DNA from: a virus
Lineage: Duplodnaviria; Caudoviricetes
Reading direction: 5' to 3' (one strand)
Length of the DNA stretch: 41,619 nucleotides
IMG/VR virus record: IMGVR_UViG_3300024181_000010
Coordinates: 1 to 41,619 of that record
Below the pieces are notes generated by a model. The model ran no database searches, was not told where the DNA came from, and was given only the letters and a program-made list of their open reading frames with translations. Of this stretch, positions 1 to 41,619 are shown in pieces (the stretch's first letter is position 1; the number at the start of each line of letters is the position of its first letter). Position numbers and translations under genes: made by a program.

Positions 1-146
1 ACACGGACGTGCTGGTCAGGCAGCTCGAGGCGACGGTTCGCCTCATTGTGGCCGGTCATCACGTATACGCAAATGTTCTGACCATCGGAGTGGTCAAGGC
101 GGACCGCGACGAGACGCATGCGGACATCATCATCGGCAGCGTGCAG
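1..146. repeat. Terminal direct repeat, left copy (circular overlap with 41474-41619)
   Basis: 21-146 is identical to 41494-41619; 1-20 differs from 41474-41493 at positions 10, 11 and 20. Confidence 0.95.
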
Positions 147-1649
147 ACCCTGGCTCGTCCGGAGCGGCGCGCCCGGATCGCCGATGTGGGCCTGGTGATC
201 GTGGACGAGGCGCATCACGCGGCGGCGGCGTCGTACCAGGAGATCCTGCGGCACTTCAACGCGATGTGCTCTTGCCCGACCACGTATGCCACGTACGAGG
301 GACCGGAGCGGGACTGTCCGGAACATGGTGACGGTAGCGTTCCGCCCACCCCCGCTCTCGGCTTCACGGCCACCCTGGAACGCGGCGACGGCGCCGGCCT
401 GGGCGGCGTGTGGCAGGACGTGGCGTTCACCCGTGACATCTCCTGGGCGGTCCGCAAGGGCTATCTCGTGCAGCCGATCGGGTACCGGCTGGAGATCGAT
501 GTCCGGGACATGATCGATGTCACGCCCATCAACCGCCCTGGACCTGAATACATGCCCGGTGGGGCGGGAGTCATGGCTTCCGGAGTGGACAAGCTGGACA
601 GGCAGCTCATGGACTGCATGGCCCCGGAGAAGATCGTCGAGAAGTGGCTCGAGCTGGCCAAGGATCGCAAGACGATTGCCTTCATGCCGCTGGTGCGGTC
701 GGCCGTTGCCCTTTCTGCAGAGTTTCACAAAGTCGGCATCGATGCCGCGTGGATCTCCGGTGACATGGACCCGATGACTCGGCGCGCCGTCGTGCGGGAC
801 TACCGCGACGGCCGGATCCAAGTCCTTTGCAACGCCATGGTGCTCACCGAGGGGTTCGACGATCCGGCCACTTCCTGCGTCATCGTGGGCCGGCCCACCA
901 AGAGCCGCTCCCTGTTCATCCAGATGGCAGGTCGCGGCCTGCGCCCGGTGCCCGGCGTTCCGGTGGAGGACCAGGACTGCATCCTGATCTCCTTGGCCGA
1001 CGCCACCACCGATCTGTGCAGCATCGCGGATCTCTCCGATCGGCTGACCGACCGCAAGGCGGACGGCGCGCTGACGGCCATGGAGGACGAGTACGACATC
1101 GGCCGTGACCTCGAGGACGCGGCGCGGCACTGGACCGGCAAGGTGGACGCGACGCAGTTCGATCCGATCGTTGCCGCGCGCAGCAAGGTCTGGGCGCGCA
1201 CCAAGGGCGGGTATTGGTTCCTGCCGATCTCCAAGGATCGGGAGTACGTATTCCTGATGGATAGTCCGGACGGAAATACGGACATCTACGTATTGACACG
1301 ACCGGAGCCGGTGATCCAGCCGGGACGGGTACTGGTCCTGAACGCGGCGACCGTGCCCGATCAGGAGTTGGCGTTCTCGCTCGCTGAGGATGAGGCGGCC
1401 GAGCGCGGCGGGGATGTGGGTGCCCTGCTGGCCGATCGGACGCGGGCGTGGCGCAAGCAGGTGCCGAAGCCCGGTAGCCCGATGCTGGCGTACGCATCGC
1501 GGCTGGGCCTGGATAGCGAGGTGGCCCGGATCATGGATGCGCCGGCCGGTGGCAAGGCGGGGAAGGTGTCCGACCTCATCCGCCGAGTGGAGGCGTCGCG
1601 GTCGATCGACAAAGCGGCAGAGCAGATCAAGGAGAGGCAGAAGGCATGA
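1..1649 (+). CDS. SF2 (DEAH-box) DNA helicase, 3' part; gene starts at 41281 and crosses the contig join (about 613 aa)
   Basis: Motif II VIVDEAHH, motif III GFTAT, motif V VLTEGFD, motif VI QMAGRGLR; Walker A lies in the 41281-41619 part, in frame. Confidence 0.9.
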   Translation, partial: TDVLVRQLEATVRLIVAGHHVYANVLTIGVVKADRDETHADIIIGSVQTLARPERRARIADVGLVIVDEAHHAAAASYQEILRHFNAMCSCPTTYATYEGPERDCPEHGDGSVPPTPALGFTATLERGDGAGLGGVWQDVAFTRDISWAVRKGYLVQPIGYRLEIDVRDMIDVTPINRPGPEYMPGGAGVMASGVDKLDRQLMDCMAPEKIVEKWLELAKDRKTIAFMPLVRSAVALSAEFHKVGIDAAWISGDMDPMTRRAVVRDYRDGRIQVLCNAMVLTEGFDDPATSCVIVGRPTKSRSLFIQMAGRGLRPVPGVPVEDQDCILISLADATTDLCSIADLSDRLTDRKADGALTAMEDEYDIGRDLEDAARHWTGKVDATQFDPIVAARSKVWARTKGGYWFLPISKDREYVFLMDSPDGNTDIYVLTRPEPVIQPGRVLVLNAATVPDQELAFSLAEDEAAERGGDVGALLADRTRAWRKQVPKPGSPMLAYASRLGLDSEVARIMDAPAGGKAGKVSDLIRRVEASRSIDKAAEQIKERQKA

Positions 1650-1828
1650 GGTTCATCCGCGACGGAGATGGAGATCTCTACATCGAGATTCCCGGACGGC
1701 CGGGACGCTTCGCGCAGGCCGGTGACTTCATTCGCGGCAAGAAGTACGTGGAGCAGTACAACTACTCCGAGGGTGAGGTGGCCGAGGATGGGCCGCTCGA
1801 AGTCGAATGGGAGGTGAAGGAGGCATGA
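1646..1828 (+). CDS. Hypothetical protein (60 aa)
   Basis: ATGA overlaps with both neighbours. Confidence 0.7.
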   Translation: MRFIRDGDGDLYIEIPGRPGRFAQAGDFIRGKKYVEQYNYSEGEVAEDGPLEVEWEVKEA

Positions 1829-2109
1829 CCAAGCGACGGTGCTGGACGTGCAACACCGAACATGACCTTGACGAGGCGTGCCCGAATTCGGGGATCGCCC
1901 GGTCCCGGCAGGAAGCTACCGGATCCATGCGCAGCATGGTCGATGACGCCGGCCCGGTAGGCGGATTCGGTCCGGTCTTCGCGGCCACGTACGAGAGCGA
2001 GTGCCCGTCCTGCGATGAACGGATCCTGCCGGGCGAGGACATCCGCGCCGACGGCCAGGGCGGCTACATCCATGCGGACACCCAATGCGAGAGGATCGCG
2101 AGATCATGA
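1825..2109 (+). CDS. Small Zn-finger-like protein
   Basis: GGAGG RBS and ATG at 1825; CWTC...H...C and CPSC...H...C motifs. Confidence 0.7.
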   Translation: MTKRRCWTCNTEHDLDEACPNSGIARSRQEATGSMRSMVDDAGPVGGFGPVFAATYESECPSCDERILPGEDIRADGQGGYIHADTQCERIARS

Positions 2110-2312
2110 TCGGTACGTGGCGACAGCAGCAGGCGATCGAGGGATTTCAGGACGCCCTCGCGGATCAAGGCGCGCAGGTGATCGAGATGGCCACCACCGT
2201 CAAGATCACGCAGGACGCGCTGGACGCCATGGACGAGAAGGTCATGGCGGGCGACATCCATGGCGGCGCGATCGCGCTCCTGAAAGCGCTGGGTTTCGAG
2301 GTTGTTCAGTGA
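2106..2312 (+). CDS. Hypothetical protein
   Basis: ATGA/GTGA coupling with neighbours. Confidence 0.65.
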   Translation: MIGTWRQQQAIEGFQDALADQGAQVIEMATTVKITQDALDAMDEKVMAGDIHGGAIALLKALGFEVVQ

Positions 2313-3211
2313 CTGACGACCTGTTCGACGATCCCGAGGTCCCGAAGTACGGGCTTGACCGGGCACTCGGCCGCTACCGCTTCCCGCCCCCGCCCGGCGT
2401 GCCCGCACCTGCCAGGAACAACGGGTGGCGCCGCACGACGAACCTGGTCAAGGCCTTCTCGGACCAGTACCGCCTGCAGCTCTGGCTGGAGCGGATGACC
2501 GTGCTTGGCCTGCTGGCCAATGACGGCCTGCTGTTCGATGAGCTGGCCGCGTCCGGGATCGAGTACCTGCCCGCGGACGTGCAGGCCAAGGCGCTGCGCG
2601 ACTGGGCGGAGAAGGCGCGCAGCGCGGTAGGCGCGGACAAGGGCGCGCGTAAGGGGACGGCACGGCACAACGTGCTCGAGCACTACATCATGGCCGGCGA
2701 GGTCATCGGCCATCGGCGCATGCAGCTCCAGATGGCTGAGCTGGTCGACGTGATGGACCGTAAAGGCTTCGAGTTCATCCCCGGCACCCAGGAGAACTTC
2801 ATCTGGCACCCGGCCGCGGGCGGCGTGATGGGCAAGCGCGACGCGCGCTTCCTGTGCACCCGTACCGGCCAGGTGGGCACGATCGACCTGAAGACGCAAC
2901 AAGCGTTCTGGACGTACCAGGAGCACGCCGGCCAGCAGACGATCTACGACACTGCGCCGTGGGCGTGGGAAGGGCCGCTGTCGGACGAGGGCCGGTGGGT
3001 ACCGCAGGAGGCCGGCACGTACGTCGGGCGCGACGCAGGCATCTGCCCGGGCAAGCCTGCCGCGCTGCTGATCCACATGCCGAGCAAGGGTGGCCCGGTG
3101 GAGCTGCACGAGCTTGACCTCGAGTACGGGGCGCGCGTGGTCGATGAGGCGGAGCGGATCGTAAGCCTGCGCACCGAGGGTACGAAGGTCGGCGGAATCT
3201 GCCCGGACTGA
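2309..3211 (+). CDS. PD-(D/E)XK exonuclease (RecB/Cas4-like phage recombination nuclease)
   Basis: GTG at 2309 overlaps the previous stop; GTARH...E...GKRD...IDLKT...Q..IY motif order. Confidence 0.75.
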   Translation: MTDDLFDDPEVPKYGLDRALGRYRFPPPPGVPAPARNNGWRRTTNLVKAFSDQYRLQLWLERMTVLGLLANDGLLFDELAASGIEYLPADVQAKALRDWAEKARSAVGADKGARKGTARHNVLEHYIMAGEVIGHRRMQLQMAELVDVMDRKGFEFIPGTQENFIWHPAAGGVMGKRDARFLCTRTGQVGTIDLKTQQAFWTYQEHAGQQTIYDTAPWAWEGPLSDEGRWVPQEAGTYVGRDAGICPGKPAALLIHMPSKGGPVELHELDLEYGARVVDEAERIVSLRTEGTKVGGICPD

Positions 3212-5585: not shown

Positions 5586-5615
5586 TTGCGCCTGATCTTA
5601 TGGGCTTGCTATACT
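5586..5615 (+). promoter_or_regulatory. Promoter for a leaderless transcript starting at ATG 5622
   Basis: TTGCGC, 18 bp, TG-extended TATACT, 6 nt, ATG. Confidence 0.75.
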
Positions 5616-5621
5616 GATGTC

Positions 5622-5831
5622 ATGGCGAGAATCATCCTGAAAGGCAACGTCGCAGACGTTGAGCTGGTCACTGACTCCGAGGATGGTCAGGTGATCGCAA
5701 AGTGCGTCACCCACGACTTCGGGGCGGGCGGCGTGAAGGCGGGCGAATGCCCGTGGAGCGAGCGATACGACTGCATGGACGACGCGACCGAGTACGCCGC
5801 GGACCACGCGGACACGGGGAGGCAGTCATGA
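5622..5831 (+). CDS. Hypothetical protein (C...H...C...H pattern)
   Basis: Leaderless ATG 5622; coupled to the next gene. Confidence 0.7.
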   Translation: MARIILKGNVADVELVTDSEDGQVIAKCVTHDFGAGGVKAGECPWSERYDCMDDATEYAADHADTGRQS

Positions 5832-5989
5832 CCAAGAAGAAGTGCGAGACGAACGCGGCAGGCACGGGCAAGAGCGGATTCTCCGCCTTCTGCGCCACTG
5901 TGCACGGATTCATCAGCGGCGGCCACGCAACCGCGCAGGACGCGGCCAGGGCGGGCGAGGCACACAAGGCGAAGGGCGCGAAGAAGTGA
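5828..5989 (+). CDS. Small hypothetical protein (53 aa)
   Basis: ATGA/GTGA overlaps on both sides. Confidence 0.6.
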   Translation: MTKKKCETNAAGTGKSGFSAFCATVHGFISGGHATAQDAARAGEAHKAKGAKK

Positions 5990-6930
5990 CCAAGCTCGGC
6001 AAGCTCTGGACGGCAGGCATCGCGTACGTGTCCCTGCTGGTGGGTGCCGGTCTGTCCGTGGCCGGCAACCTCGCGGACACCTATCGCACGCGCGGCGCGG
6101 ACATCGACAACCTGGACAAGGTGATGGCCGCAGGCTGGCCGATCCTGGTGCTGCTGGCCATCGAGATGTTCGTGTCCCCGCGCTGGTCGCCCGCGCGGAT
6201 GTTCCAGGCGTGGCGCTGGATCGGCTGCCTGGCCGTCGGGGGCATGGCCATGGTGGTCTCCTGGACGCACCTGCATGACCTGATGGCCAGCCGCGGACAG
6301 CTCTACATCGTGTCCGTGCTCGGTCCGCTGGCCATCGACGGCATGGCCATCATGGCCACCGGTCTCATCCTGTCCACGCGTGTCCGCGGACATGCGCCGG
6401 ACACGGACATCCGCCAACGCGTGGCCATGACCGCGCCGGACGTGGCCACGTTCAAAGAGAAGATGTCCGCGTCCATGACCGTGGACGCGGACACCAGGGA
6501 CACGATCATGCGAGCCAACGTGGCCGCGGCCATGGCGGACACGGACATTCACTTTGACGCCGATGGACATGACCGCTGGGCGGATCTCGTGTCCGCGGAC
6601 ACGGACCTGATGTCCTGGGCGGACGGCCATGACCGCGCGGTCACGGACATGGGGCAGGAGCTGGCCACCGAGGCGGAGCGGTACGTCCAGGACATCATGT
6701 CCGCGGACACGTTGCCTACGCGGACGCGGACACCGTCCGGTGCGTCCGCACCGGCAGAGTTCGTGGCCATGGTCACGGCGTGGAATCCGATCGAGCTGGA
6801 CCGCGCGGACATGGTCAAGCTGTCCGCGGCCTACTTCGGGGTGTCCGACCGGACGGCGCGCCGCTGGCTGTCCGCGGTCACGGGCGCGCCGATGTCCGGC
6901 GCGCCTGATTCAACCACTAGTGAAAGGTGA
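5986..6930 (+). CDS. DUF2637/Spd-like membrane protein with C-terminal HTH
   Basis: About 4 N-terminal TM segments (GLSVAGN, AAGWPILVLLAIEM, VSWTHLHDL, GPLAIDGM), low-complexity linker, C-terminal LSAAYFGVSDRTARRWL. Confidence 0.7.
   Translation: MTKLGKLWTAGIAYVSLLVGAGLSVAGNLADTYRTRGADIDNLDKVMAAGWPILVLLAIEMFVSPRWSPARMFQAWRWIGCLAVGGMAMVVSWTHLHDLMASRGQLYIVSVLGPLAIDGMAIMATGLILSTRVRGHAPDTDIRQRVAMTAPDVATFKEKMSASMTVDADTRDTIMRANVAAAMADTDIHFDADGHDRWADLVSADTDLMSWADGHDRAVTDMGQELATEAERYVQDIMSADTLPTRTRTPSGASAPAEFVAMVTAWNPIELDRADMVKLSAAYFGVSDRTARRWLSAVTGAPMSGAPDSTTSER
6029..6897. repeat. Dense TGTCC/GGACA motif array (TG[TGA]CC family) within the CDS
   Basis: Hand count about 32 TGTCC/GGACA; TGTCCGCGGACA at 6381, 6590, 6698; variants at 6521 and 6869. 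Confidence 0.85.
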
Positions 6931-6935: not shown

Positions 6936-7091
6936 ATGGCCAAGGGGACCGGCTTCGTTCCGTGCACCAACTGCGGCGGAAGTGGCGCGGTGAACACCAC
7001 CGAGATTTATAACGAGAACGGGAAGACCAAGACCAGGACCGTCCGCAAGGTCTGCACCACCTGCGGCGGCAAGGGCGGCTTCCACGTCTGA
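6936..7091 (+). CDS. 51-aa DnaJ-type zinc-finger protein (not in ORF track)
   Basis: MAKGTGFVPCTNCGGSG...VCTTCGGKGGFHV: two CxxCxGxG repeats; AAGGTGA RBS. Confidence 0.8.
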   Translation: MAKGTGFVPCTNCGGSGAVNTTEIYNENGKTKTRTVRKVCTTCGGKGGFHV

Positions 7092-7175: not shown

Positions 7176-8732
7176 CTAACCGGTGCGAGCAAGAACGAAC
7201 AGATCGAGGTCCGACGGGTCGTATAGCGCGGTCCGGTTCGGCCCTTCCGCCACCGGCTCGGGGAACGTCTCCGCGTTGGCGTTTCGCCAGTTGCGCAGTT
7301 GCGTCAAGCCGATACTCCGGCTGTTGGCGAACTCTCGCAGAGACAGTGCATCAACAGCCTCTGACCTGACGTTACGCGCGTTCTCAGTTGTTGCTGATTG
7401 CCCCAGCATCATGGCCGGCACGTCCGGCGCCGGGGCACCCCCGGTAGCCCACTCGATCAGCCGCGCCTCCTGCTTCTTGATGTCGCAGAACGGCGCCTGG
7501 AACTCCTTCAGGGCATCGCCCACCACCAGGTGCCAGCGGCCCGGCATGCCGGCGTGCTTCGGGATGGGCCGGATGCTGGTCAGCATGCGCCACGCGTTGC
7601 CGGTCGCCTTGCCCATCACCCGGCCACCGAACGACTCCCGGCCTTCGGGCCCACCGGTCACCTTCGCGGTCACACTCTGGCCGGCCAGGAGGATGTGCAC
7701 GCGCATCTCCCGGCCCATGTTGGCCAGGTTCGCCAGTGCCGTCAGGGCCGGGCTCATGCCCTTGCCCTCGATGCTCTTCCAGTAGCTGCGCAGCCTGTTC
7801 GTGGCGCTGGTCATCTCCTCGAGGACGGCCACCAGCGGGACCAGCAAGGCCGGATCCCCGCCGGACGAGACGAACCGTGCCCGGCGCAGAAGCTCGCCGT
7901 CCAGCCAGAGCAGGGCTTCGTGCAGTTCCTCGCTCTCCGCGGCGTACAGCACGCCGGGGATGCGCCGTAGCCACATGTGGCTGACGAACTTGGCGTCCAG
8001 GCAGAGCACGCCGTAGCCGCGCCGCATGAACTGCGCCACCAGCCAGGCCAGGAGCTCGCTTTTGCCGGCCATGGACTGGGCGTTGATCAGCAGGTGCGGG
8101 CTGTCCGCGGTCAGGTCGAAATCGACCTGCTGTCCGGCAGGTCCGGCGCCCATCACAAGATCCGTGTCCGCGGCCATGTCCACGGCGCTGAGCATGTCCG
8201 CCATGCCCACGGACTTCGGTGGCTTGGCCGGCATGGTGAAGTGTCCGTACGGCTTACGTCCGGTCAGTGTCCACGTGGCCACGGTGCCGGACACGGACAG
8301 CCGTTGCTCGAGCAGCCGATGGATCGTGGCCATGTCCTCCTTCGTGGCCGGCCAGTCCATCGGGACATGGACACGGATGTCCGCGGACTCACGGTCACGG
8401 AAGTTCTTGGGGATGTCCACGTGGACAAGACCTTGTCCGCTCGGTGTCCGCGCGCGGATGGCGTTGTCCAGCACGATGGCCACCGGCTGGTGGACATGGC
8501 GCCGGAATGTCCACGTGGCCACGTAGCGGACAGCGCGGTGTCCGGCCATGGCCGCGGACATGACCGCGTACGCCAGCAGCGGCCACCACCACGCCCACGG
8601 CCACATGGCTGTCAGCAACATGGCAATTCCCAGGTTCCGCTTGGCCATGGTGCGGACACGGGTGTCCATGCCGCGGTGGCCGGCCAGGAGCGTGCGCCAT
8701 ACCGCGTCGTATGCACGTGCACGTGGGTTCAC
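7176..8732 (-). CDS. FtsK/SpoIIIE-family TraB-like DNA translocase (N-terminal TM, C-terminal HTH)
   Basis: TM segments at the N-terminus; SPHLLINAQSMAGKS (Walker A), CLDAK, VAVLEEM (Walker B), GREMRVHILLAGQS; C-terminal LSLREFA...LTQLRNWR...FPEP. Confidence 0.85.
   Translation of the reverse strand: MNPRARAYDAVWRTLLAGHRGMDTRVRTMAKRNLGIAMLLTAMWPWAWWWPLLAYAVMSAAMAGHRAVRYVATWTFRRHVHQPVAIVLDNAIRARTPSGQGLVHVDIPKNFRDRESADIRVHVPMDWPATKEDMATIHRLLEQRLSVSGTVATWTLTGRKPYGHFTMPAKPPKSVGMADMLSAVDMAADTDLVMGAGPAGQQVDFDLTADSPHLLINAQSMAGKSELLAWLVAQFMRRGYGVLCLDAKFVSHMWLRRIPGVLYAAESEELHEALLWLDGELLRRARFVSSGGDPALLVPLVAVLEEMTSATNRLRSYWKSIEGKGMSPALTALANLANMGREMRVHILLAGQSVTAKVTGGPEGRESFGGRVMGKATGNAWRMLTSIRPIPKHAGMPGRWHLVVGDALKEFQAPFCDIKKQEARLIEWATGGAPAPDVPAMMLGQSATTENARNVRSEAVDALSLREFANSRSIGLTQLRNWRNANAETFPEPVAEGPNRTALYDPSDLDLFVLARTG
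8102..8667. repeat. Second TGTCC/GGACA motif array, limited to the 5' third of the TraB-like gene
   Basis: Hand count about 25 copies; palindromic pairs at 8102, 8165, 8414 (TGTCCACGTGGACA) and 8549; none seen in about 7200-8100. Confidence 0.85.
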
Positions 8733-9329: not shown

Positions 9330-9589
9330 CCACGATGATCGTGATCGACCGACTGCTCTGGTACAACCCGCATTACCAGCGGATGGTGTCGCTCCCCTCG
9401 CTGTCGAATCATCACCCGATCCGGCTCACGCTGTATTCCATGCTGACCGGGCCGGACGATTGCGACACGCCGTCCAACGAGATCTACTGCCCGTGCGACG
9501 AGAAGATCCCATGGAGGTCGGGATCGGTCGGCGAAGCGCTGGAACTGTCCCGCAACCACCTGCGCGAGAAGCACGGAAAGTTGCTGTGA
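9323..9589 (+). CDS. Hypothetical protein with possible Zn ligands (CPC...H...H)
   Basis: GGAGG RBS, ATG 9323, GTGA overlap with the next gene. Confidence 0.6.
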   Translation: MLTTMIVIDRLLWYNPHYQRMVSLPSLSNHHPIRLTLYSMLTGPDDCDTPSNEIYCPCDEKIPWRSGSVGEALELSRNHLREKHGKLL

Positions 9590-10068
9590 TCCTGTTCCCG
9601 CGCGCCCGGCGCCGCTCCCCCGGCATCTACTGGTATCGCACGCGCCGGCACCTCAAGCGCGGCACCGAATGGGGTTACGTCGGCAAGAGCAACCATCTGG
9701 ACTTGCGCGCCGACTGCCACGAGGGCAGGTGCACGCGTCATCCCGCATGTGCGGGAGGCAAACCGTGGTCGGACCTGATCGTCCGGCGCCGCTCGCTCGA
9801 GTTGCCCTGGTGGCTCGGCTGGCAATGGGTCACGCTGTCCCTAGAAACCGGCCTGATCTTCGCGCTGCGGCCCCGCTACAACATCCAGAAGAATCCGCGA
9901 CGTAGCAAGGTGCCATATCGCATCCAGCAGGTGCAGCGCGCGGCCAGGGAAGGCGCGCGGCGCTGGGGCGATATCGAGCACGAACCGCACGGCATGAACA
10001 TTCTGATCGCATTGACCGCCATCGCCATGATCGTTGTCGGGATCGTCGGCACGCTGACCACCAGATAG
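9586..10068 (+). CDS. GIY-YIG nuclease-like protein with a C-terminal TM helix
   Basis: GIYWY...WGYVGKS..L..R...H, LETGLIFALRPRYN; C-terminal ILIALTAIAMIVVGIVGTL. Confidence 0.7.
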   Translation: MILFPRARRRSPGIYWYRTRRHLKRGTEWGYVGKSNHLDLRADCHEGRCTRHPACAGGKPWSDLIVRRRSLELPWWLGWQWVTLSLETGLIFALRPRYNIQKNPRRSKVPYRIQQVQRAAREGARRWGDIEHEPHGMNILIALTAIAMIVVGIVGTLTTR

Positions 10069-10077: not shown

Positions 10078-10509
10078 ATGAACGAACTCGATCGCACCCT
10101 GATCATGAAGCAACCGGCCGTCATCACCAGCGCTCGCCCGGTGCACACGCTCACCGCGCCGTATCATGCCAAAGCGGATCTTGTCGCCGCGGTGACACGC
10201 CAGGCGCGCCGCGGCGAGATCCGCCCACTTACCGCGCGTCCCCGCTACAACCCGGACCGCGGACTCTGGGAGCAGCCGGTGGAGCGCCTCCGGCCACCGG
10301 CGCCGGCCTGGACCCGGCCTGCAGTCATCATCGGCGCCATCATGACAGGACTGTCATCCCTGGTGATGCTGGGCTGGTGGGTGCTGACCTCACTGGCCGC
10401 GGCGCCGCTCGCGCTGTTCCTGATCGCCGTGCTGTGCTGGCTGGCCGCGGTCATCCGCGCCGGCAAGCGGCAGACGGTGAACGTGACGAACAATGTGACC
10501 ATCAGGTAG
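10078..10509 (+). CDS. Two-TM membrane protein (Spd-like candidate)
   Basis: Basic N-terminal domain and two hydrophobic segments; same operon as the GIY-YIG gene. Confidence 0.65.
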   Translation: MNELDRTLIMKQPAVITSARPVHTLTAPYHAKADLVAAVTRQARRGEIRPLTARPRYNPDRGLWEQPVERLRPPAPAWTRPAVIIGAIMTGLSSLVMLGWWVLTSLAAAPLALFLIAVLCWLAAVIRAGKRQTVNVTNNVTIR

Positions 10510-10590: not shown

Positions 10591-10830
10591 TTACCGGTTC
10601 TTCTTCAGGTACGCAGTGATCAGACCGGACACCGTGCCGATCCCGACGGTCACCAGCGGCACCCACCAGCCGGACCAGTTCGACGTGTCCAGGCCGGCCA
10701 GTCCGGCGCCGAGTATCTGCAGCACGGTGGTCACGATGAAACCGACGGCGAGCCCGGCTTTGCTCTCCTTGGCCAGGCTCCTGCTGCCGTCCCCGGCCGG
10801 ACCGGAGTTGACGGGGTTGGGCATGATCAC
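10591..10830 (-). CDS. Holin-like two-TM protein
   Basis: Two TM segments, basic C-terminus LKKNR, end of the lysis cassette. Confidence 0.65.
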   Translation of the reverse strand: MIMPNPVNSGPAGDGSRSLAKESKAGLAVGFIVTTVLQILGAGLAGLDTSNWSGWWVPLVTVGIGTVSGLITAYLKKNR

Positions 10831-10833
10831 TCC

Positions 10834-11127: not shown

Positions 11128-11137
11128 GCTCAGGATC

Positions 11138-11407: not shown

Positions 11408-11454
11408 TCATAATCCACCCATCGACGCGTACGGACATGATTGCCGCGTGGAAA

Positions 11455-30610: not shown

Positions 30611-30684
30611 GGGGCAAGTATGCAGAACAGCCACGGTTGTGGGGAACCGTGGCTGTTCTGGCGGAGGCAACCGCAGGCCGGACG

Positions 30685-31587
30685 TTAGCAGGAGCCGGCG
30701 TTACCGGGGGTGGTTGCCACGCCGCCCACGAACTTGTAGCCGGCTTTGCCGTAGTAGAACGTGCGCGTGCTGCCGGTCGCGAACGTCGCGTCGAAAGCAG
30801 GTGCGTCGGTGGGCGTGAACATCGTGAACGAGGTGGTCAGCGTGCTGGGCGACGGGTTGACGATCGACAGGCTGCCCACGTATGCCTGACCGACACCGGG
30901 CGTACCGCCCAGCCCGAGGTCGCCGCACGGCTTGTCGTTGCTGGTACCTGCGTTGTTGGCGCCGTTGTAGTAGTACTCGCCGAACGCTTGGACGAATTTG
31001 GACGTCTGGAATCCTGCGCTGAACGCGGCCGGGGTGTAGCAGCCGACCGACGTGCCCGCGTAGGTGATGAACCACCCGTTGTTGTAGGCGCCGCATCCGG
31101 TCATCGACCAGAACACCTGCAACTGCTTGGCCGTTCCGATGTCCGCGGTGAGGTCGGAGCCCAGGTTGGTCGCGTTCGCGCCGTTGTCGACCCAATTGGC
31201 GCCACCGGTCCAGCAGCCACCGGCCACGCCACCGGTCCAGGAGCAGCCGAACAGGTGCGGGTTGAAGTCACCGAACACGGTGGGTTCGACGGCGATGCCG
31301 GCCTCAACAGTATTGCCGGACACGCCGGAGGTGGTTTCGTGGACGGCCAGCTCGATCAGCGAGTGATCGTAGACGCCGCCCACGGCGGTGTTGGGGACGA
31401 ACGGTTTGGCCACGTAGGCGTTGGTGGACAGGCCACGCACGTAGTCGGTGCCGGTGAAGGTCTGGCTTCCGCCGGCGTAGTAGAAGCCCGCGCCCGTGAA
31501 CGCAGTGGCCTGCGCGGCGGAGGGCAGCGCCAGCAGGGAGACCAGGACAAGCAGGGTCAGGCCGATCGAGCCGAGTATCTTTTTCAT
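30685..31587 (-). CDS. Secreted neprosin-like (glutamic peptidase fold) protein
   Basis: Signal peptide ending AQA; HSLIELAV...NTVEAGIAVEPTVFGDFNPHLF...WFITY...VGCY...VQAFGE; own TATACT promoter. Confidence 0.75.
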   Translation of the reverse strand: MKKILGSIGLTLLVLVSLLALPSAAQATAFTGAGFYYAGGSQTFTGTDYVRGLSTNAYVAKPFVPNTAVGGVYDHSLIELAVHETTSGVSGNTVEAGIAVEPTVFGDFNPHLFGCSWTGGVAGGCWTGGANWVDNGANATNLGSDLTADIGTAKQLQVFWSMTGCGAYNNGWFITYAGTSVGCYTPAAFSAGFQTSKFVQAFGEYYYNGANNAGTSNDKPCGDLGLGGTPGVGQAYVGSLSIVNPSPSTLTTSFTMFTPTDAPAFDATFATGSTRTFYYGKAGYKFVGGVATTPGNAGSC

Positions 31588-31609
31588 GGGTCCAGTATAT
31601 CGGGTTGAT

Positions 31610-31708
31610 CTATGCGCCGAAAGCCATTCGCCCGATAGCAATAGTGATCAGAATCGATCCTGCCATGACGGCCAGCATGGGCAGCGAGAGAAGCGCGGCG
31701 AGCTTCAC
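31610..31708 (-). CDS. 32-aa hydrophobic peptide (not in ORF track)
   Basis: MKLAALLSLPMLAVMAGSILITIAIGRMAFGA; GTGA overlap with the TerS stop. Confidence 0.5.
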   Translation of the reverse strand: MKLAALLSLPMLAVMAGSILITIAIGRMAFGA

Positions 31709-32187
31709 CGCAGGTTCTCCGGCTCTACCCCGTTGATCTTGTAGTTGGTGGTCACGCCCACCTCGCCGCCCAGCGTCACCCGGTTGGGCAGATGCCCCAG
31801 CTCCTCGGCCACGTTGCGCAGGATCTTCTGGGCCACGCCGGCATCAATCTCCATGATCGGATGCCGCTCGCCGCTCTCGTCCGGCAGGCCATACATGATC
31901 TCGCCCTTGGCGTTCACCTTCGGCACAGGCTTGAGCGCGGTGTCCAGCACGTCCAGGTACGTGGCCAGCCGGATAGCCTTCTCCGCGATGGCAATCCCCG
32001 CGAACTCGTTCTCCTGGTCAGCGCGCACCTGCTCGATCGTCTGCCGGTGACGGTCGGCAAAGAAGCTGATGGCCGGCTGGGTGACGCCGTACTCCTCGGC
32101 CAGCTTCTCCTGCGTCTTGCCGGACGTGGCCAACTCGACGATCAGTTGCCTGCGCGTCCAGGGCTTCTCAAGCTTCCGGGGAGGCAT
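31705..32187 (-). CDS. terS: Terminase small subunit (N-terminal HTH)
   Basis: KTQEKLAEEYGVTQPAIS HTH; VAEELGHLP...YKINGV end; first gene of the packaging block. Confidence 0.7.
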   Translation of the reverse strand: MPPRKLEKPWTRRQLIVELATSGKTQEKLAEEYGVTQPAISFFADRHRQTIEQVRADQENEFAGIAIAEKAIRLATYLDVLDTALKPVPKVNAKGEIMYGLPDESGERHPIMEIDAGVAQKILRNVAEELGHLPNRVTLGGEVGVTTNYKINGVEPENLR

Positions 32188-32617
32188 AAATAGCTCCATT
32201 AGCCTGGTTATCCACAGGGTTATCCACAGGTCGCATGACTAGTGCAGCCTTGAATTCGTCCAGCAACTTGTGCCGGGTGAAGAACTGCGTACCGCTCCAC
32301 GTCCACAGCGATCCCCACGATCCGCCCAGGCGTACCGCCACGGCATGCCGGTCCCCGCGTACCAGCCGGAGCGCCTCGGAGAACTTGGGCGCCGCGCCGG
32401 CTTTGCCGGTGGTCGCGTGCGGGACGTAGCCGTTCGCATACGTGATCCGCCCGGTCCAGCCATGTGAGAGCGCAAGCTTCAGCAGATCGGCCGCGGGCTT
32501 GGAAGTCGGCCCGTCATACGGGTCGTCCGAGGTGAGCAGGGGTGCCGGGTACGGCTCGGCCGTGGCCGGCACGGGCGCGGCGCCGGGAGGCGGGAACGGG
32601 TAGTGCGTGATCTGCAT
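32168..32617 (-). CDS. Hypothetical protein
   Basis: ATG 32617 with GGAGAGG RBS. Confidence 0.6.
   Translation of the reverse strand: MQITHYPFPPPGAAPVPATAEPYPAPLLTSDDPYDGPTSKPAADLLKLALSHGWTGRITYANGYVPHATTGKAGAAPKFSEALRLVRGDRHAVAVRLGGSWGSLWTWSGTQFFTRHKLLDEFKAALVMRPVDNPVDNQANGAIYASPEA
32206..32230 (+). promoter_or_regulatory. Two tandem consensus DnaA boxes (TTATCCACA)
   Basis: TTATCCACA at 32208-16 and 32220-28. Confidence 0.6.
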
Positions 32618-33180: not shown

Positions 33181-33546
33181 TCAGGAGGCTTTCTCGGAGA
33201 AATTCAGGCTCACGTCGTGCACGGGCTGCGCGATCCGGTAGTGCACGCGCGGCCGGTTGGCCGTGTAGCCCTTGCCGCGAGCGTAGACGGTGGGCACCGG
33301 GATCAACTCCTGCTCCAGCACGCCCGTGCTGCGCATCCGGCTCAGCATCTCGGCAACGCTGGCGCGCTTGACGCCGAACTCCTGGGCTGCCATGTCCGCG
33401 AGATCCTGCCCGTTCCTGAAGGTGGTGTGATCGAGGCGATCCCACACGTACTGCCACGCCTGTGCCATCCGGCCACCCTTGGCGCCGAAATGGTAGGTGC
33501 CGCTGGGGATGGGGGCGATGCCGTTGGGTCGCTCGATCACTGCCAT
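33181..33546 (-). CDS. Winged-helix DNA-binding protein (regulator candidate)
   Basis: AAQEFGVKRASVAEMLSRMRSTGVL...VHYRI; leaderless ATG 33546 after AATACT. Confidence 0.6.
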   Translation of the reverse strand: MAVIERPNGIAPIPSGTYHFGAKGGRMAQAWQYVWDRLDHTTFRNGQDLADMAAQEFGVKRASVAEMLSRMRSTGVLEQELIPVPTVYARGKGYTANRPRVHYRIAQPVHDVSLNFSEKAS

Positions 33547-33556
33547 GAGCCCAGTA

Positions 33557-34015
33557 TTACGCATCGGTCCGGGCGAGACAAGCAGGGCAGTCCGCCAGAC
33601 CCGGATCCGTCACCAGGCGATACCGCGTGCCCGGATCCGCCGCAGCGCAGGCCGGCATGTCACGGACGCGCAGATGAACGGGCGCCGTGGTCAGCGTGGT
33701 GCGCACGATGTCGCGCCCGGTGTGCGCCGTGCTCGCCTCCACCAGCCCCAGGCGCAGGCACTCGTTCACGATGCGGGTCAGGTGGATGTCGTCCCATCCG
33801 CCGATCATGTGCCAGGTACGGCCTGCCGGGACGACCAGCGCGCCGCGCTCGATCCGGTGAATGAGCCGCGCGGCGTCCAGGTCGGTCACGTGGTTGCGGA
33901 AGCGGGTGGCGTCCGGGGTGTCCTCGCCGGCCAGGCAGTGCGCGCCTGCCCGGGCGATGAGGTCCAAATCCCGCTGCGAGAGATCTCCGAGGAGGTCAAG
34001 GTTCAGGTCTGTCAT
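33557..34015 (-). CDS. Hypothetical protein, leaderless start
   Basis: TG-extended TATACT 6 nt before ATG 34015; C-terminal H...C...CPAC. Confidence 0.65.
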   Translation of the reverse strand: MTDLNLDLLGDLSQRDLDLIARAGAHCLAGEDTPDATRFRNHVTDLDAARLIHRIERGALVVPAGRTWHMIGGWDDIHLTRIVNECLRLGLVEASTAHTGRDIVRTTLTTAPVHLRVRDMPACAAADPGTRYRLVTDPGLADCPACLARTDA

Positions 34016-34331: not shown

Positions 34332-34597
34332 GACCGATGGCCGATAGAAAATCGCTATGAAGTCAGGTTTCCCCCTCAGCCCCTCTTCTGTGTCCTATAT
34401 GTCTGTCTCTCTCTCTCTTCTCTATACGTAGCCCCGGGACTCTATCGGTCTATCGGTCTATAGGGGTATCTAGCAGGGAAAACTCAAAAAAGCTATCGGA
34501 CTACTAGCGGTCCGGCTATCGGTCCGCTACCGGTCTATCGGTCCGTCGACACAAACGGACCGGTAGACCCGGACCGGTAGGCCCAGTTCTACCGGTC
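34332..34597. repeat. Iteron-like array CTA(T/C/G)CGG(T/A)C with CT-rich and A-rich tracts; candidate replication origin
   Basis: Direct copies at 34442, 34450, 34493, 34504, 34516, 34527, 34535, 34589; inverted at 34558, 34572; non-coding, next to the primase-helicase gene. Confidence 0.75.
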
Positions 34598-34617
34598 CGC
34601 AGGCCGGTTACTCTCCG

Positions 34618-36897
34618 CTACAAATCCATGAGATCCGAGACCATCGAACCGCCCACGATCACCCGGATACCGGTCACCACGCGATGCTTTCCGCCGGCAC
34701 CGTTGCTTTTGCGCTCCACCGTCACGCCCTGGTCCCCGAACGCGGACCGGATGTCACGCGACAGCCTGTTCAGCGACGGCGACAGCGACATGTTCTCGGT
34801 GGTCAGCCAGTCGCGGTAGTTCGACAACAACGCCTCGAGGGAGATCTCTGCGGTCAGATCGACCACACATCGATCGTCCACCCACGCCTTGACTGGACTG
34901 GAGTCCCGATCGACCTCCGCAGCCAGCTCCATGGAGCCGGCCGACTGGGTGAAGGTGCCCAGCTTCGCCACCCGGTCCAAGCCGTCCAATGCCCAATTGA
35001 GGATGCCGGGCAACTCCGTCATGAGCCGGCCCTCGAGGGTTAGGTCCTCCGACCCCAGGAATGAGCGATGGAAGGCCACGTACACCATGCGTCCGGCCAG
35101 GGCGCCGGACGCGTCGGTGAAGACCGGAGCATCGTTGCTCATGAGCATGAGCCGGGTGGGCAACTTGCCGATCCAGTCCCCGACATGCTTGCGCGGGATC
35201 GAGAAGCCGTCCTCGCCGGAGATGCCCAGCATGATCGGCACGGCATCGATGACGTGCTTGGACGTCCAGCGCACGTCTCCCATGACGGCCAGGCCGCGGC
35301 CGATCAGCGAGGCCATGCCAAATTCCGATCCCAGCCTCGCCAGCGTCGGCGCAGCCCATCCGTCCCGCCCCACCATGGCCTTCAGCACCCGGGAGATCGT
35401 GCCCTTGCCGCACCGAGGCGGACCGACCAACACGCCGATCTTGTGAAGGTCCGTGCGCCCGGACAGGACATAGCCCATCCACTCCGCGATCGTCTCGTGT
35501 GCCTGCCGGTCCCCGGGCAACGTGCTCTCCAGGAAGTCCAGCCACTGAGGGCACGCGGCGTCCGGATCGTAGGAGAACGGCAGCGATGACAGGTTGAACA
35601 GGGCCGGATCGTGTGGGCTCATCGACCGCGTGGCCGGATCCAGGACGCCGTTCTCCATGGCCATCACCGCGGCAGGCTCCTGCTCCTGCTGCACGACGCC
35701 ACGTGAGAGCGCATCATGCACGTTAGTCACCTTGCCGGCCGTGGGCGACCACTTCTTAACCTCGAAATCACCCTTGCCGTCGACTGCGGTGAAAGTGGCG
35801 TCCTCGGTGGCTTGATAGATCCACTTCTTGATCATGTCGTCACTGATCTCCGCCCAGTGCCGGCCGAGATGTTCGTAGTAGGCGCCCTGCCACCAGCGCA
35901 ACGGCCGTTCCCGCAACGCCAGGATCTCGCGCGCCACCTTCATCGGCTGCCCGGGCGGGCTCAGGTGTGCCGTACCGTCATCCCCAGCCCCGTCCGCCAT
36001 CTTCGCGGCCTGGACGGGCGGGGCTTCCATCGCTACCCAACTCTTTCCGGCCTCGGTGGCCGAGTAGGCACTGTTGATGGTGAGCCGATCGTCGCGGTCC
36101 GGCTCGGTCCAGCCCTGCCGTTTGCCTAATGACCGAATCATGAGTTCACCGCAGCGCTCCCGGTCCACCAGCCAAGGGAAGTGCGCGCACGTCATGGCAA
36201 AGTTGTTGATCGCCCCGTTGAAGCCCTGGGTGGTCTTGCCGAGCTCCTCCTTGGCCGCCTTCACGTACGCCACGGCCTGTTCCCGGGTGAAGCGCCGTTC
36301 CGGGTCGTCGAAGAGATCGTCGGAAACCTCGGACGTGACCGTGGGTTGCGCAGGTCCGGGCGACTTACGGGCTCGCATCCGCTCTACGACCACGTCCGGC
36401 GTGCAGCGCTGCGCCGCCCAGTCCGGCTCTCCCCGCCCTGCCCATGCACCCTGGCCGTCCGTGGTGGGCGGGGCGAACACGAACCCGCCGATACCGCGGA
36501 TGTCGACGTGCGGCGCGACCTTGCCGTCCTGGTCGTTGCCGATCGGGTGGTCCGGGTGCTCGCGGTAGTACCAGTGCTGCCCGCCGGGCGTGTCGACGAT
36601 CCACAGCGGCTCGGGCGGGTCGAGATCCAGCCAGGCCGTGACGCCGTCCAAGCCGTCGCAGTCGACCACCAGAAGCTTGCTCTTGCCGCAGTCGATCAGC
36701 AGGCCGGCGTTCGGGTGGTCCTGCTCCCAGGCGCCGATGTCGGCCAGGGAGGTGCTCGAGGTGGTGCGCCACAGCCCTACCGGCCGGACATCCTTCTTGC
36801 CGTCCGGTTTGCGCGTGACGTACACGGGATTGACATAGATGCCATTTTTGGCGTACTCGCGTGCGGCCGACCACATGATGTTGTTACTCTGGTCCAC
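34618..36897 (-). CDS. Bifunctional primase-polymerase fused to a D5/P4-type SF3 helicase
   Basis: LLVVDCD, DTPGGQHWYY, DIRGIGGFVFAPPT; GPPRCGKGT, LMLMSN, ELPGILNWALDG. Confidence 0.92.
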   Translation of the reverse strand: MDQSNNIMWSAAREYAKNGIYVNPVYVTRKPDGKKDVRPVGLWRTTSSTSLADIGAWEQDHPNAGLLIDCGKSKLLVVDCDGLDGVTAWLDLDPPEPLWIVDTPGGQHWYYREHPDHPIGNDQDGKVAPHVDIRGIGGFVFAPPTTDGQGAWAGRGEPDWAAQRCTPDVVVERMRARKSPGPAQPTVTSEVSDDLFDDPERRFTREQAVAYVKAAKEELGKTTQGFNGAINNFAMTCAHFPWLVDRERCGELMIRSLGKRQGWTEPDRDDRLTINSAYSATEAGKSWVAMEAPPVQAAKMADGAGDDGTAHLSPPGQPMKVAREILALRERPLRWWQGAYYEHLGRHWAEISDDMIKKWIYQATEDATFTAVDGKGDFEVKKWSPTAGKVTNVHDALSRGVVQQEQEPAAVMAMENGVLDPATRSMSPHDPALFNLSSLPFSYDPDAACPQWLDFLESTLPGDRQAHETIAEWMGYVLSGRTDLHKIGVLVGPPRCGKGTISRVLKAMVGRDGWAAPTLARLGSEFGMASLIGRGLAVMGDVRWTSKHVIDAVPIMLGISGEDGFSIPRKHVGDWIGKLPTRLMLMSNDAPVFTDASGALAGRMVYVAFHRSFLGSEDLTLEGRLMTELPGILNWALDGLDRVAKLGTFTQSAGSMELAAEVDRDSSPVKAWVDDRCVVDLTAEISLEALLSNYRDWLTTENMSLSPSLNRLSRDIRSAFGDQGVTVERKSNGAGGKHRVVTGIRVIVGGSMVSDLMDL

Positions 36898-38202: not shown

Positions 38203-38231
38203 ACTATAGCAAGCTCATGCCAGACCGTCAA
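38203..38231 (-). promoter_or_regulatory. Leaderless promoter for the YhhQ/TGT-like pair
   Basis: TTGACG, 17 bp, TG-extended TATAGT, 6 nt, ATG 38196. Confidence 0.8.
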
Positions 38232-39517
38232 CCCGTCTTCAGTCGGGCAAGTTGCACGCTCTCCCGCGCCCGCGTGACGCCGGTGTACAGAAATCGCCGC
38301 GCCTCCTCGGTGGCCTTGGCCATCCCATCGCGCCGCGCCTGCATCTCGATCATGGCGCGCGTCTCGTCCACCACGTACACGCTGTCCCACTCCGACCCTT
38401 GCGCCTTGTGCACCGTGATGGCATCCGCGAACGTGAACGCCCCCACGTCCCCGCGCCAGGCCCGTTTCGACTTCAGCGACTTCTCGCCCTCGAGCCCAGT
38501 GAAGCCGTCCGGCCAGGCGTGGATCCAGCGTTCCGGCGCATCGGCGCCGGACTCCTTCAGTAGAAGCCGCTCGCCGTCCACCTCGAGCACGTCGAACTGC
38601 TGACCGTTCAGGATGCCGAGATCCCGCTTGTTGTTGACCAGGCAGATGACCCGGTCCCCGGCCACTGCCTGGCCGGCCGGGTAACCCTTCTTGGCCCGAA
38701 TCTTCTCGATCAGCTTCCAGCGCGTGGCGTTGCGCCAGCACAGCACCTGCTCGAATTCCATAGCGCGAGTGATGGAGGCGATCTCTTCCACGGCCGTATG
38801 CCGGATTCCACGTCCGTCGCTGGTCCGGATCTCTGTGGCCAGCCGCAGCACGGGCGACTCCCAGGCCTGTCGATGGATTTCGGTGAGCAGGACGTCCGGC
38901 TCGGAGCGGGTGTAGTAGCCGCCACCCTCGATCGGCGGGAGTTGGAACGGGTCGCCCAGAACCAGCACGGGCACGCCGAAGCTCTCGATGTCGCGCGCCA
39001 TGTCCGTGTTCACCATGGAGACCTCGTCCAGGACGATCAGGTCCGCGTACGCCCAGTCGGACTCGGGGTTCAGCACGAAACCGGGCTGTCGGAGTTGGGC
39101 CTCGAGGTCGGCGATCTTCTCGGCCAGGGAGTTCGTGTAGGCCGGATCGGGGATCAGCTCCGACATCTCTTCGGCGTACTTGGTGGTCACCTCCTGCCAC
39201 TCCGCTCGTACCTGCGCGTTCTCCGTCGGCCGGTAGATGGCGGAGTGGATGGTGGTGGCCGGCACGCCCTTGCGGGCGAGCACGCTGGCTGCCTTGCCCG
39301 TGTAGGCACCGAACACCACGTCGTGCAGTCCGAGCCGGGAGGCGATCTCCCGCGCCAGCGTCGTCTTGCCCGTACCTGCCGGCCCGAACAGGCGGAAGGG
39401 CTCCGGTGGCGCGTAGCGGTTCAGCGGGCCTCGGTCCTGGCTGTCGTGGCCTGCGCCGAAGTACCACTCGCGGACGGCCTCGAGCGCCTTCTCCTGCTCA
39501 GGGGTGAGAGTGATCAT
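38228..39517 (-). CDS. SF1B RecD/Dda-like DNA helicase
   Basis: LTPEQ, GPAGTGKTT, DEVSMV, GDPFQLPP, IHRQ, TVHKAQGSEW, YTGVTRA; ATG 39517. Confidence 0.92.
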   Translation of the reverse strand: MITLTPEQEKALEAVREWYFGAGHDSQDRGPLNRYAPPEPFRLFGPAGTGKTTLAREIASRLGLHDVVFGAYTGKAASVLARKGVPATTIHSAIYRPTENAQVRAEWQEVTTKYAEEMSELIPDPAYTNSLAEKIADLEAQLRQPGFVLNPESDWAYADLIVLDEVSMVNTDMARDIESFGVPVLVLGDPFQLPPIEGGGYYTRSEPDVLLTEIHRQAWESPVLRLATEIRTSDGRGIRHTAVEEIASITRAMEFEQVLCWRNATRWKLIEKIRAKKGYPAGQAVAGDRVICLVNNKRDLGILNGQQFDVLEVDGERLLLKESGADAPERWIHAWPDGFTGLEGEKSLKSKRAWRGDVGAFTFADAITVHKAQGSEWDSVYVVDETRAMIEMQARRDGMAKATEEARRFLYTGVTRARESVQLARLKTG

Positions 39518-40665: not shown

Positions 40666-40668
40666 CGC

Positions 40669-40875
40669 GTGTGCCCGAGACGCACGACCAGGAATATTTG
40701 CCGCACAAGGAAACAGCGCTATCTCACTGAGGCGAGTGCCTATCTGATCTTGCTGTCCGCGCAGAATCTGCGATCCAGGCAAGGTGCGGAAAAGGTAGAG
40801 CAGCGTGTCTACCTGTGCCCACATTGCAACGGTTGGCACATGACCAGCAAGCCCGAGAAGAAAGGCAATCCATGA
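40669..40875 (+). CDS. Small Zn-binding protein
   Basis: C..KQRY...RVYLCPHCNGWHMTS, a recurrent small phage protein pattern. Confidence 0.7.
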   Translation: MCPRRTTRNICRTRKQRYLTEASAYLILLSAQNLRSRQGAEKVEQRVYLCPHCNGWHMTSKPEKKGNP

Positions 40876-41102
40876 TGGTCAGCAAGCTGGAAGGCGCGCT
40901 CGAGGCGGCGCTCGAGGCGGCGCTCGAGGACCTCGCGAACGCGCAAGACACCATCGAGCACGTGACTGCCGTGGAGCAGGACGGCGCGCACATCCCGATC
41001 GACTGGCGCGAGATCGGCGGTATCCGGGTGGGCCTGGACGCGGCAGGCAACGCCGTGCGTGTGGAGCTCGGGGACACGCTGGACGGGTGGGTGGCGGAGT
41101 GA
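40872..41102 (+). CDS. Hypothetical acidic protein
   Basis: ATGA overlap with the previous gene. Confidence 0.55.
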   Translation: MMVSKLEGALEAALEAALEDLANAQDTIEHVTAVEQDGAHIPIDWREIGGIRVGLDAAGNAVRVELGDTLDGWVAE

Positions 41103-41284
41103 TGAAAACCGGATGCGGTGTATTCCTGATCCTCACCTTGATCTTGGCGTTTATGACCATGATCATGGGCCTGACCATGGGATGGTCAGGCACGTTCTCT
41201 ACCTTATGGATAGGCGCATTGATCGTTTACGGCGCAGGGTTTGCCGCTCTGATCATCGCAGGCATCGTGAGTTGGCTGCTGTGA
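41102..41284 (+). CDS. Two-TM membrane protein
   Basis: TGATG coupling; two hydrophobic segments. Confidence 0.65.
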   Translation: MKTGCGVFLILTLILAFMTMIMGLTMGWSGTFSTLWIGALIVYGAGFAALIIAGIVSWLL

Positions 41285-41619
41285 CCATTCGTTTAAGGCA
41301 ATATCAACTGGACGCACTCGAGGCGGAGCGCAGGCATCGCGAGACCGAGCCGGCCGAAACCCGCCTGGCCGTCGTCCTGCCCACAGGCACGGGCAAGGCC
41401 ATCACGCTGGCGGAACGTGCGGTCCAGTTCATGACACAGGCCGGTGGTGACGGACGTGTACTGATCCTGGTGCACACGGACGAACTGGTCAGCCAGCTCG
41501 AGGCGACGGTTCGCCTCATTGTGGCCGGTCATCACGTATACGCAAATGTTCTGACCATCGGAGTGGTCAAGGCGGACCGCGACGAGACGCATGCGGACAT
41601 CATCATCGGCAGCGTGCAG
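41281..41619 (+). CDS. SF2 helicase, 5' part (continues at the window start)
   Basis: GTG 41281: MTIRLRQYQLDAL...VVLPTGTGKA...RVLILVHTDELVSQ. Confidence 0.9.
   Translation, partial: MTIRLRQYQLDALEAERRHRETEPAETRLAVVLPTGTGKAITLAERAVQFMTQAGGDGRVLILVHTDELVSQLEATVRLIVAGHHVYANVLTIGVVKADRDETHADIIIGSVQ
41474..41619. repeat. Terminal direct repeat, right copy
   Basis: Matches 1-146 with 3 mismatches. Confidence 0.95.

Follow-up and report, generated by a model that had tools for sequence, protein, structure and literature searches.

A TraB-like DNA pump and intragenic repeat arrays in a 41-kb tailed phage without a recognisable integrase: a candidate conjugative phage-plasmid

The window analysed here was the whole of IMG/VR virus record IMGVR_UViG_3300024181_000010 (G000 in the present set; Caudoviricetes; 41,619 nucleotides, 65.6% GC). 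It encodes a tailed phage that carries a plasmid-type transfer module, in which a gene for a TraB-like DNA translocase lies close to a gene for a DUF2637 membrane protein and both genes contain arrays of the short word GG(A/C)CA. The core of this module consists of the following features.

5986..6930 (+): DUF2637 membrane protein with a repeat-encoded linker and a C-terminal helix-turn-helix (HTH) domain (Pfam, protein atlas, relatives)
6029..6900 (no strand): GG(A/C)CA array 1, CGCGGACA x15 in both orientations, within the DUF2637 gene (word clustering, synonymous shuffles)
7176..8732 (-): TraB-like FtsK-fold translocase of double-stranded DNA (dsDNA), 518 amino acids from GTG or 497 from the next ATG (Pfam, tblastn, AlphaFold model, fold match)
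8000..8732 (no strand): GG(A/C)CA array 2, within the 5' part of traB (synonymous shuffles)

The TraB-like DNA pump

The TraB-like protein has an N-terminal hydrophobic helix, Walker A (AQSMAGKS) and Walker B (LVAVLEE) motifs and a C-terminal MerR/Xis-like HTH; sequence, model and alignment agree on the membrane-anchored FtsK-fold ATPase with intact Walker motifs that is characteristic of TraB/clt systems. Its Pfam FtsK match was weak (E 3.7e-4, under the cut-off). The AlphaFold model (pLDDT 86.7) gave TcpA and FtsK motor domains as top matches (E 8e-16 to 1e-14), and Walker A and B were kept in 44 aligned homologs. In tblastn searches the protein matched 55 actinomycete plasmids, 47 of them from Streptomyces and all at <60% identity, and a single cultured phage, Dagobah, in the ATPase part alone. 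The dN/dS of the ATPase part (0.10-0.37 in 6 pairs) was well below 1, which indicates purifying selection. Descent of the cassette from plasmids is indicated by the Planobispora plasmid pPR2, since it holds DUF2637, the same Tra lineage and the same tail. Judged from sequence, the transfer module is genuine, both intact and conserved, and descends from plasmids; the fold match, the plasmid relatives and the conserved Walker motifs bear out the plasmid-type TraB-like module proposed in the initial annotation.

The C-terminal domain differs sharply between otherwise close relatives; profiles of this tail matched MerR_1 in 10 of 28 members and HTH_17 in 6 of 28, with weak excisionase and terS matches. 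In the convergent group of traB loci a terminator-like hairpin lies downstream of traB. Just 3' of traB in a co-directional subgroup (L017, L018, L028, L037, L042) is a long near-perfect palindrome of the GGGCGGGACCTGT..ACAGGTCCCGCCC type, which flanks a putative -10 box after TTGACA. Directly 3' of traB in G018 is a dense GGGACA array (14 copies in ~170 nt) that is closer to a classical clt. A GTTAAC-containing repeat pair, immediately 5' of the window traB (8733-8780) and shared with G001 and G003, is a candidate separate operator.

GG(A/C)CA arrays and the DUF2637 protein

GGACA and CGCGGACA were the most clustered words of the genome, concentrated in the stretch that encodes the DUF2637 linker and in the 5' portion of traB; the 3' half of traB contained no such array. 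For GGACA, a motif picked after the clustering was seen, synonymous shuffles (protein kept, codons resampled, 300 shuffles) gave 9.3 copies for array 1 and 5.9 for array 2, as against 32 and 25 observed, numbers reached by 0 of 300 shuffles in either case. This excess indicates selection on the DNA itself. In 11 of 14 records the DUF2637 gene showed a 2.3-6.5-fold enrichment of GG(A/C)CA; in G008, G009 and G032 there was no clear excess. Phages differ in the variant that they prefer (CGGACA, TGGCCA or TGGACA), and the preferred variant tends to agree between the DUF2637 gene and traB (mean r 0.59 within a phage, n=14, vs 0.23 across phages, n=182, computed among related phages with kinship uncorrected).

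The DUF2637 protein is a candidate Spd-like partner of TraB and a candidate tether between DNA and membrane. It is probably a likelier binder of the arrays than TraB, because the core word stays constant while TraB tails change and because most array-bearing records preserve an S-x-R-T-x-R-R-W-like helix in the DUF2637 HTH. Choice of the array motif by the TraB tail was disfavoured, since the GG(A/C)CA core is constant across widely differing tails. A precedent for a binding site in a protein's own gene is SpdA2 of pIJ101, where the site serves segregational stability (PMC4170104). The intragenic arrays may also act as clt; part of the clt of pWTY27 falls inside traA (PMC3583192). No literature on DUF2637 function or on this phage family was found, in a search that left subscription journals mostly outside, and the DUF2637 protein had no tblastn match in PLSDB.

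A family of TraB-carrying phages without integrase or Par genes

A protein search with TraB returned 168 homologs. Among the 120 listed, 23 were on 40.8-45.2 kb contigs and no contig exceeded 45.2 kb, so that there was no sign of chromosomal copies; in a control, 12 of 120 endolysin homologs were on longer contigs. For comparison, 15 TraB records were assembled, namely the window, nine IMG/VR records of the same TraB clade and 5 of 25 records selected by terL, whose TraB belongs to this or a more distant lineage; 13 of the 15 were at least 90% complete.

The initial annotation had noted no recognisable recombinase and no ParA/ParB, and had named an integrase as one finding that would count against a phage-plasmid. 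Six-frame searches of the window for tyrosine and serine recombinases (PF00589, PF00239, PF07508) and ParA/ParB (PF13614, PF02195) gave no match at E<=0.1, with positive controls detected, and none of the five families matched in any of the 15 TraB records (E cut-off 0.001 for the five terL-selected records, 0.1 for the remainder). Both absences thus held in the window and its 14 relatives, and no integrase appeared in any of them. The Int + Rep + Tra set that defines an actinomycete integrative and conjugative element (AICE; PMC3218068) is accordingly incomplete here, lacking a tyrosine or serine integrase, and the partition system expected in large phage-plasmids (PMC7969092) was absent as far as PF13614 and PF02195 detect it; DUF2637 with its arrays is a candidate substitute. 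Among the 25 terL relatives, five had TraB without integrase and three had integrase without TraB, an exclusion that is only suggestive because four near-complete relatives hold neither.

The DUF2637 gene and a gene for a GIY-YIG-like membrane protein were each found in 14 of the 15 TraB records, the missing record being a 24-kb fragment. Head modules differed among the records (Clp-type, S78-type, one without match), as did replicases (prim-pol with D5, with AAA_25, or unclassified). The TraB cassette persists through exchange of head and replicase modules. Another gene of the window was present at 37 of 45 TraB loci examined. In G011, G013 and G014 a TraB of another lineage (27-29% identical) occupies the same slot. 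WhiB is encoded in G008 and G009.

Palindromic promoters and a candidate repressor

5590..5625 (+): palindromic promoter of the extended -10 type, TGCTATACT-N6-ATG, at the head of the DUF2637 transcription unit (6 sites found, 0.15 expected)
3237 (+), 39751 (+), 39705 (-), 38211 (-), 34030 (-): five further palindromic promoters (motif scan)
33181..33564 (-): winged-helix protein (GntR/PadR-like fold), candidate repressor of the palindromic promoters (model fold; GntR E 3.6e-4, under the cut-off)

The word TGCTATA(G/C)T occurred in 6 copies in the window against 0.15 expected, five of them six bases 5' of an ATG; a sigma-70 scan alone gave 3 sites against 1.4 expected. Such promoters numbered 73 sites in 12 of 18 records. 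Their flanks showed complementarity around the TATA centre (0.42, against 0.20-0.27 for nine other registers), more so within one genome (0.46) than between genomes (0.36). The winged-helix gene, itself downstream of a palindromic promoter, was present in exactly the same 12 of 18 records, which form one clade and so count as one event, not twelve. A fold search with the winged-helix model gave no match at E<=0.001. Together, protein and dyads suggest a global repressor that may hold lysogeny or time the lytic cycle. As to the lysogeny control expected of phage-plasmids (PMC7969092), an XRE repressor was not found, and the winged-helix candidate and the dyad promoters were present.

Replicase and putative origin

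34618..36897 (-): prim-pol/D5 (superfamily 3) primase-helicase replicase (Pfam, PHROGs, TIGR01613)
34380..34617 (no strand): putative origin, a low-GC tract with CTATCGGT and ACCGGT iterons (repeat counts)

The replicase matched Prim-Pol (E 2.5e-19), D5_N and DUF5906 in Pfam and the P4-family primase TIGR01613 above its cut-off. Directly after its gene, at 34440-34600, are all four genome copies of TATCGGT, six of the nine copies of CTATCGG and ACCGGT(A/C) repeats, adjoined by a stretch of 48% GC; all 8 D5-type records examined had 7-mer repeat clusters at this position. The initial description of a prim-pol replicase with iterons was therefore correct, and the genome has the initiator and, putatively, the origin of its own that phage-plasmids are expected to have (PMC7969092), by way of a replicase type common in ordinary phages.

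Genome, virion genes and likely host

24920..32199 (-): terS, a neprosin-domain insert, terL, portal, Clp protease and HK97-type major capsid genes (Pfam, PHROGs)
12531..24715 (-): head-tail, major tail, tape measure and tail-tip genes of non-contractile type (PHROGs)
10591..12534 (-): endolysin and small membrane (holin-like) genes (PHROGs)
9..3211 (+): superfamily 2 (SF2) helicase (start 41281, crossing the circular join) and exonuclease (Pfam, PHROGs, sequence)
38228..39517 (-): Dda/RecD2-like superfamily 1B helicase (Pfam, PHROGs, family profile match)

A terminal overlap of 146 nt reduces the window to a unit genome of 41,473 bp and splits the SF2 helicase, which is open for 614 amino acids across the join. 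One 6,491-nt contig of run X1 spans 36860-41619 and 1-1877 (4,614 + 1,877 = 6,491), and depth over the X1 contig matches was even throughout (15-21); run X1 is possibly the source run, and these matches then confirm the assembly and are not a second occurrence. An assembly chimera was ruled out by this single contig and the even depth, and the window is a circular or circularly permuted genome. Over 28000-41619, matches in run X1 at 97% likeness showed no junction to other DNA.

Among 85 window open reading frames (ORFs), Pfam and PHROGs scans recovered the terminase large subunit, portal, Clp-type protease, HK97-type capsid, major tail, tape measure and endolysin, so that the terL, portal, protease, capsid, tail and lysis genes of Caudoviricetes were all present and the genome is the complete tailed phage that had been claimed. 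Endonuclease VII, Dda-like helicase, SF2 helicase and exonuclease are also encoded; no tRNA was found in the window. Between terS and terL (30685-31587, -) sits the neprosin-domain protein, with a signal-peptide-like N-terminus; homologs occupy the same place in G001-G003, G010 and G013. A Vut_1 (queuosine-precursor transporter-like) gene and a phrog_15826 gene, with their own dyad promoter, lie between the Dda helicase and the replicase (36990-38196, -), and this pair was not found in the relatives compared.

The host is likely a filamentous actinomycete, because the endolysin finds its nearest named relative in Actinoplanes sp. (67% over 61% of the length) and the nearest cultured terminases are from Streptomyces phage Dagobah (49%) and Thermobifida phage P1312 (53%). 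A metagenome-assembled genome labelled Nocardioides was also among the endolysin matches.

Genes around traB

6936..7091 (+): small Zn-finger ORF (CxxC..CxxC) between DUF2637 and traB (Pfam, sequence)
9586..10068 (+): GIY-YIG-like protein with a C-terminal membrane helix, adjoining traB in 14 of 15 TraB records (alignment)
10078..10509 (+): two-helix membrane protein, Spd-like candidate, kept in relatives (sequence)

A bidirectional terminator-like hairpin directly follows the small Zn-finger ORF. The GIY-YIG-like label comes from an alignment with invariant G13, Y15, Y31, G33, R41 and E87; Pfam support was weak, with one of 30 distant homologs matching, none in another scan and almost none of the 104 representatives of the family, and PLSDB gave no tblastn match. 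At 4655-5332 (+), near the cassette in 13 of 18 records, lies a gene for a 225-amino-acid protein with an invariant His and Cys, which by eye we take to be permuted NlpC/P60-like and for which no database match was obtained; it may serve transfer as a hydrolase of the wall or membrane. Four alignments searched against PDB sequences gave no significant match.

Interpretation

An intact, conserved, plasmid-derived transfer module in phages in which no integrase was found, in the window or its relatives, makes it probable that their DNA moves between hyphae without virions. That confidence is divided between two readings, of which a conjugative phage-plasmid is tentatively preferred: a non-integrating phage that would persist as a repressed plasmid-like circle and spread both as virions and by TraB-driven dsDNA transfer. 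The stable plasmid state is much less certain than virion-free transfer. Under this proposal, the prim-pol/D5 protein would initiate replication at the adjoining iterons, and the winged-helix protein would bind the palindromes centred on the -10 boxes, keeping the replication, early and head-gene promoters down in a quiet carrier state. The membrane-anchored DUF2637 protein would bind the GG(A/C)CA arrays of both its own gene and traB, tethering the circle beside the pump in place of ParABS, and TraB would drive the circle through cross-walls or into another hypha on contact. Loss of repression would lead to virions and lysis.

Several observations weigh against this picture. No carrier was found: the TraB patterns that detected 36 metagenome loci detected no family member in GTDB genomes, terL patterns detected only two 50%-identical Planctomycetota loci in GTDB, PLSDB held no actinomycete plasmid with this capsid (best terL 52%), and none of 10 TraB clusters looked up named an organism. 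Relatives as free replicons in hosts, which the initial annotation had pointed to, thus did not appear in GTDB or PLSDB; since GTDB includes a single genome for each species and the host may be an uncultured one, these absences are moderate evidence against a plasmid state. (Two Streptomyces plasmids of ~100 kb, NZ_CP109332.1 and NZ_CP108279.1, with terminases 50-52% identical to that of the window, are probably phage-plasmids of another group.) The replicase is no plasmid hallmark, contrary to what had been supposed, as the prim-pol/D5 type matched 883 phage records against 123 plasmid records, and the Dda and SF2 helicases, exonuclease and endonuclease VII suit lytic replication. Searches of the window for a CI/XRE repressor scored only terS and the DUF2637 tail. 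At traB itself, the C-terminal domain is not the FtsK-gamma-type winged helix of pSVH1 TraB, no TraR/korA regulator adjoins the gene (the sole GntR-like match is 26 kb off and under the cut-off), and no classical non-coding clt was seen 3' of traB among 23 loci inspected; GGACA orientations in the arrays (18/14) are unlike the direct 8-bp repeats of clt. The co-occurrence counts come from relatives, which are not independent. Of the initial interpretation, the transfer module therefore stands and, no integrase having been found, virion-free transfer is soundly argued; extrachromosomal persistence is much less secure, as no carrier, Par or CI-type repressor was found and the replicase does not discriminate.

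A virulent phage without a lysogenic state is itself a substantial possibility. TraB and its partners would then move genomes, as these replicate, across cross-walls or into hyphae in contact, one virion would infect many compartments, and the winged-helix protein would merely time the lytic programme. The missing carriers in GTDB and PLSDB, the failure to find Par, integrase or CI, the strong consensus promoters and the lytic-type helicase and nuclease genes all fit such a phage; cultured P1312, which has an FtsK-like gene, behaved as lytic (PMC4569894), and Dagobah combines a truncated ATPase homolog with no integrase. It accounts less well for the operator-like dyads on every palindromic promoter, whose partly phage-specific arms suggest a global off switch, or for the iteron origin and plasmid-derived cassette, and the GTDB absence is weak support for it for the reasons given above. 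A role within one compartment, in which the ATPase and its partners would anchor or clear DNA at the membrane or interfere with host segregation or sporulation and no DNA would pass between cells, is improbable. The TraB C-terminal domain, which is not FtsK-gamma and varies freely among close relatives, the lack of a classical clt and the nuclease-like membrane protein that travels with traB are in its favour, but among named relatives the closest are Tra-type genes of plasmids, neighboured by DUF2637, and the architecture fits TraB/TcpA.

Least probable is a temperate phage that integrates, through a recombinase that escaped recognition or through functions of the host, or else a phage with a decaying plasmid fragment. 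Many small ORFs lack a family match and distant terL relatives hold integrases; against integration stand the 15 TraB records without recombinase, the confinement of the 120 listed TraB homologs (of 168) to contigs of at most 45.2 kb and the lack of junctions in run X1 over 28000-41619, and dN/dS well below 1 argues against decay.

It is possible, though doubtful, that in a widespread family of 41-45 kb soil phages DUF2637 on its arrays and the TraB pump form one machine for segregation and virion-free spread, without integrase or ParABS; if true, this would be a new mode of phage-plasmid maintenance and the first DNA-binding function for DUF2637. Either leading outcome would be informative, whether the element proves to be a conjugative phage-plasmid that does without Par or a lytic phage whose genome is pumped between compartments. 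Phage-plasmid screens based on Par, known replicases or type IV secretion system genes would likely miss such elements, and the arrays and dyad promoters are open to direct binding assays.

Comparison with known systems

To our knowledge, the spread of phages within and between mycelia of filamentous bacteria without virions has barely been studied, and pZL12 is its sole worked example. Criteria for phage-plasmids (PMC7969092, PMC12282955) and parABS prophages (PMC7157519) have been described; the available part of PMC11302927 contains nothing on DNA spread.

As in the TraB/clt/Spd systems of Streptomyces (pSVH1, pIJ101, pWTY27; background in the introduction of PMC4447253), the window has a single membrane-anchored FtsK-like translocase, neighbouring small membrane genes and short repeated words near or inside tra (PMC4447253, PMC3583192). 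It differs in having a MerR/Xis-like tail in place of the gamma-type winged helix, arrays that are coding and bidirectional, and no adjacent traR. The SpdA2/sps system of pIJ101 likewise has a binding site inside its own coding region and serves segregational stability (PMC4170104), but SpdA2 is a small soluble protein with one to three palindromes, whereas DUF2637 is a membrane protein and the candidate binder of dozens of short words. Tra proteins of the pRL2-11 type from actinomycete plasmids share 30-38% identity with the window TraB over the ATPase. In Planobispora pPR2, DUF2637 lies upstream of a related Tra with the same C-terminal HTH; unlike the window, pPR2 has no annotated virion genes and carries a non-coding GACCGGAC array downstream of Tra. 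The pPR2 Tra (L083, 8514-10330) is seemingly split into two frames, with GACCGGAC x7 downstream.

Among phages, the cultured Streptomyces phage Dagobah (PMC7650747) shares head and tail gene order and a truncated homolog of the window ATPase (L005, 43826-44755, ATPase part only of the TraB lineage; no integrase match), but has 1.2-kb terminal repeats and lacks DUF2637 and the membrane anchor and tail of TraB. P1312 also has an FtsK-like gene (PMC4569894) and, unlike the window, a serine recombinase.

The concept of a plasmid-phage with transfer genes is already known, and pZL12 precedes the present element. This characterised Streptomyces plasmid-phage (PMC4487206, PMC3583192, PMC5431353), the transfer of which requires tra and two adjacent genes (PMC3583192), resembles the window in joining tailed-phage genes, an FtsK/TraB-type transfer gene and adjacent genes on one circular replicon (pZL12/phiZL12; Zhong et al. 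2010; GQ919031). According to its GenBank record it differs in its size of 90 kb and its ParA, ParB, integrase/recombinase and GntR regulator. The 58 window proteins had no meaningful match in pZL12, the TraB profile found nothing there, and its tra genes showed no GG(A/C)CA enrichment. The plasmid state and transfer of pZL12 have been studied, whereas the window is known from sequence alone. From these comparisons, the present phages appear as an undescribed family, smaller than pZL12, unrelated to it and without integrase and Par; as a compact family that keeps its pump through head and replicase swaps and never an integrase or Par, it offers a clean test case.

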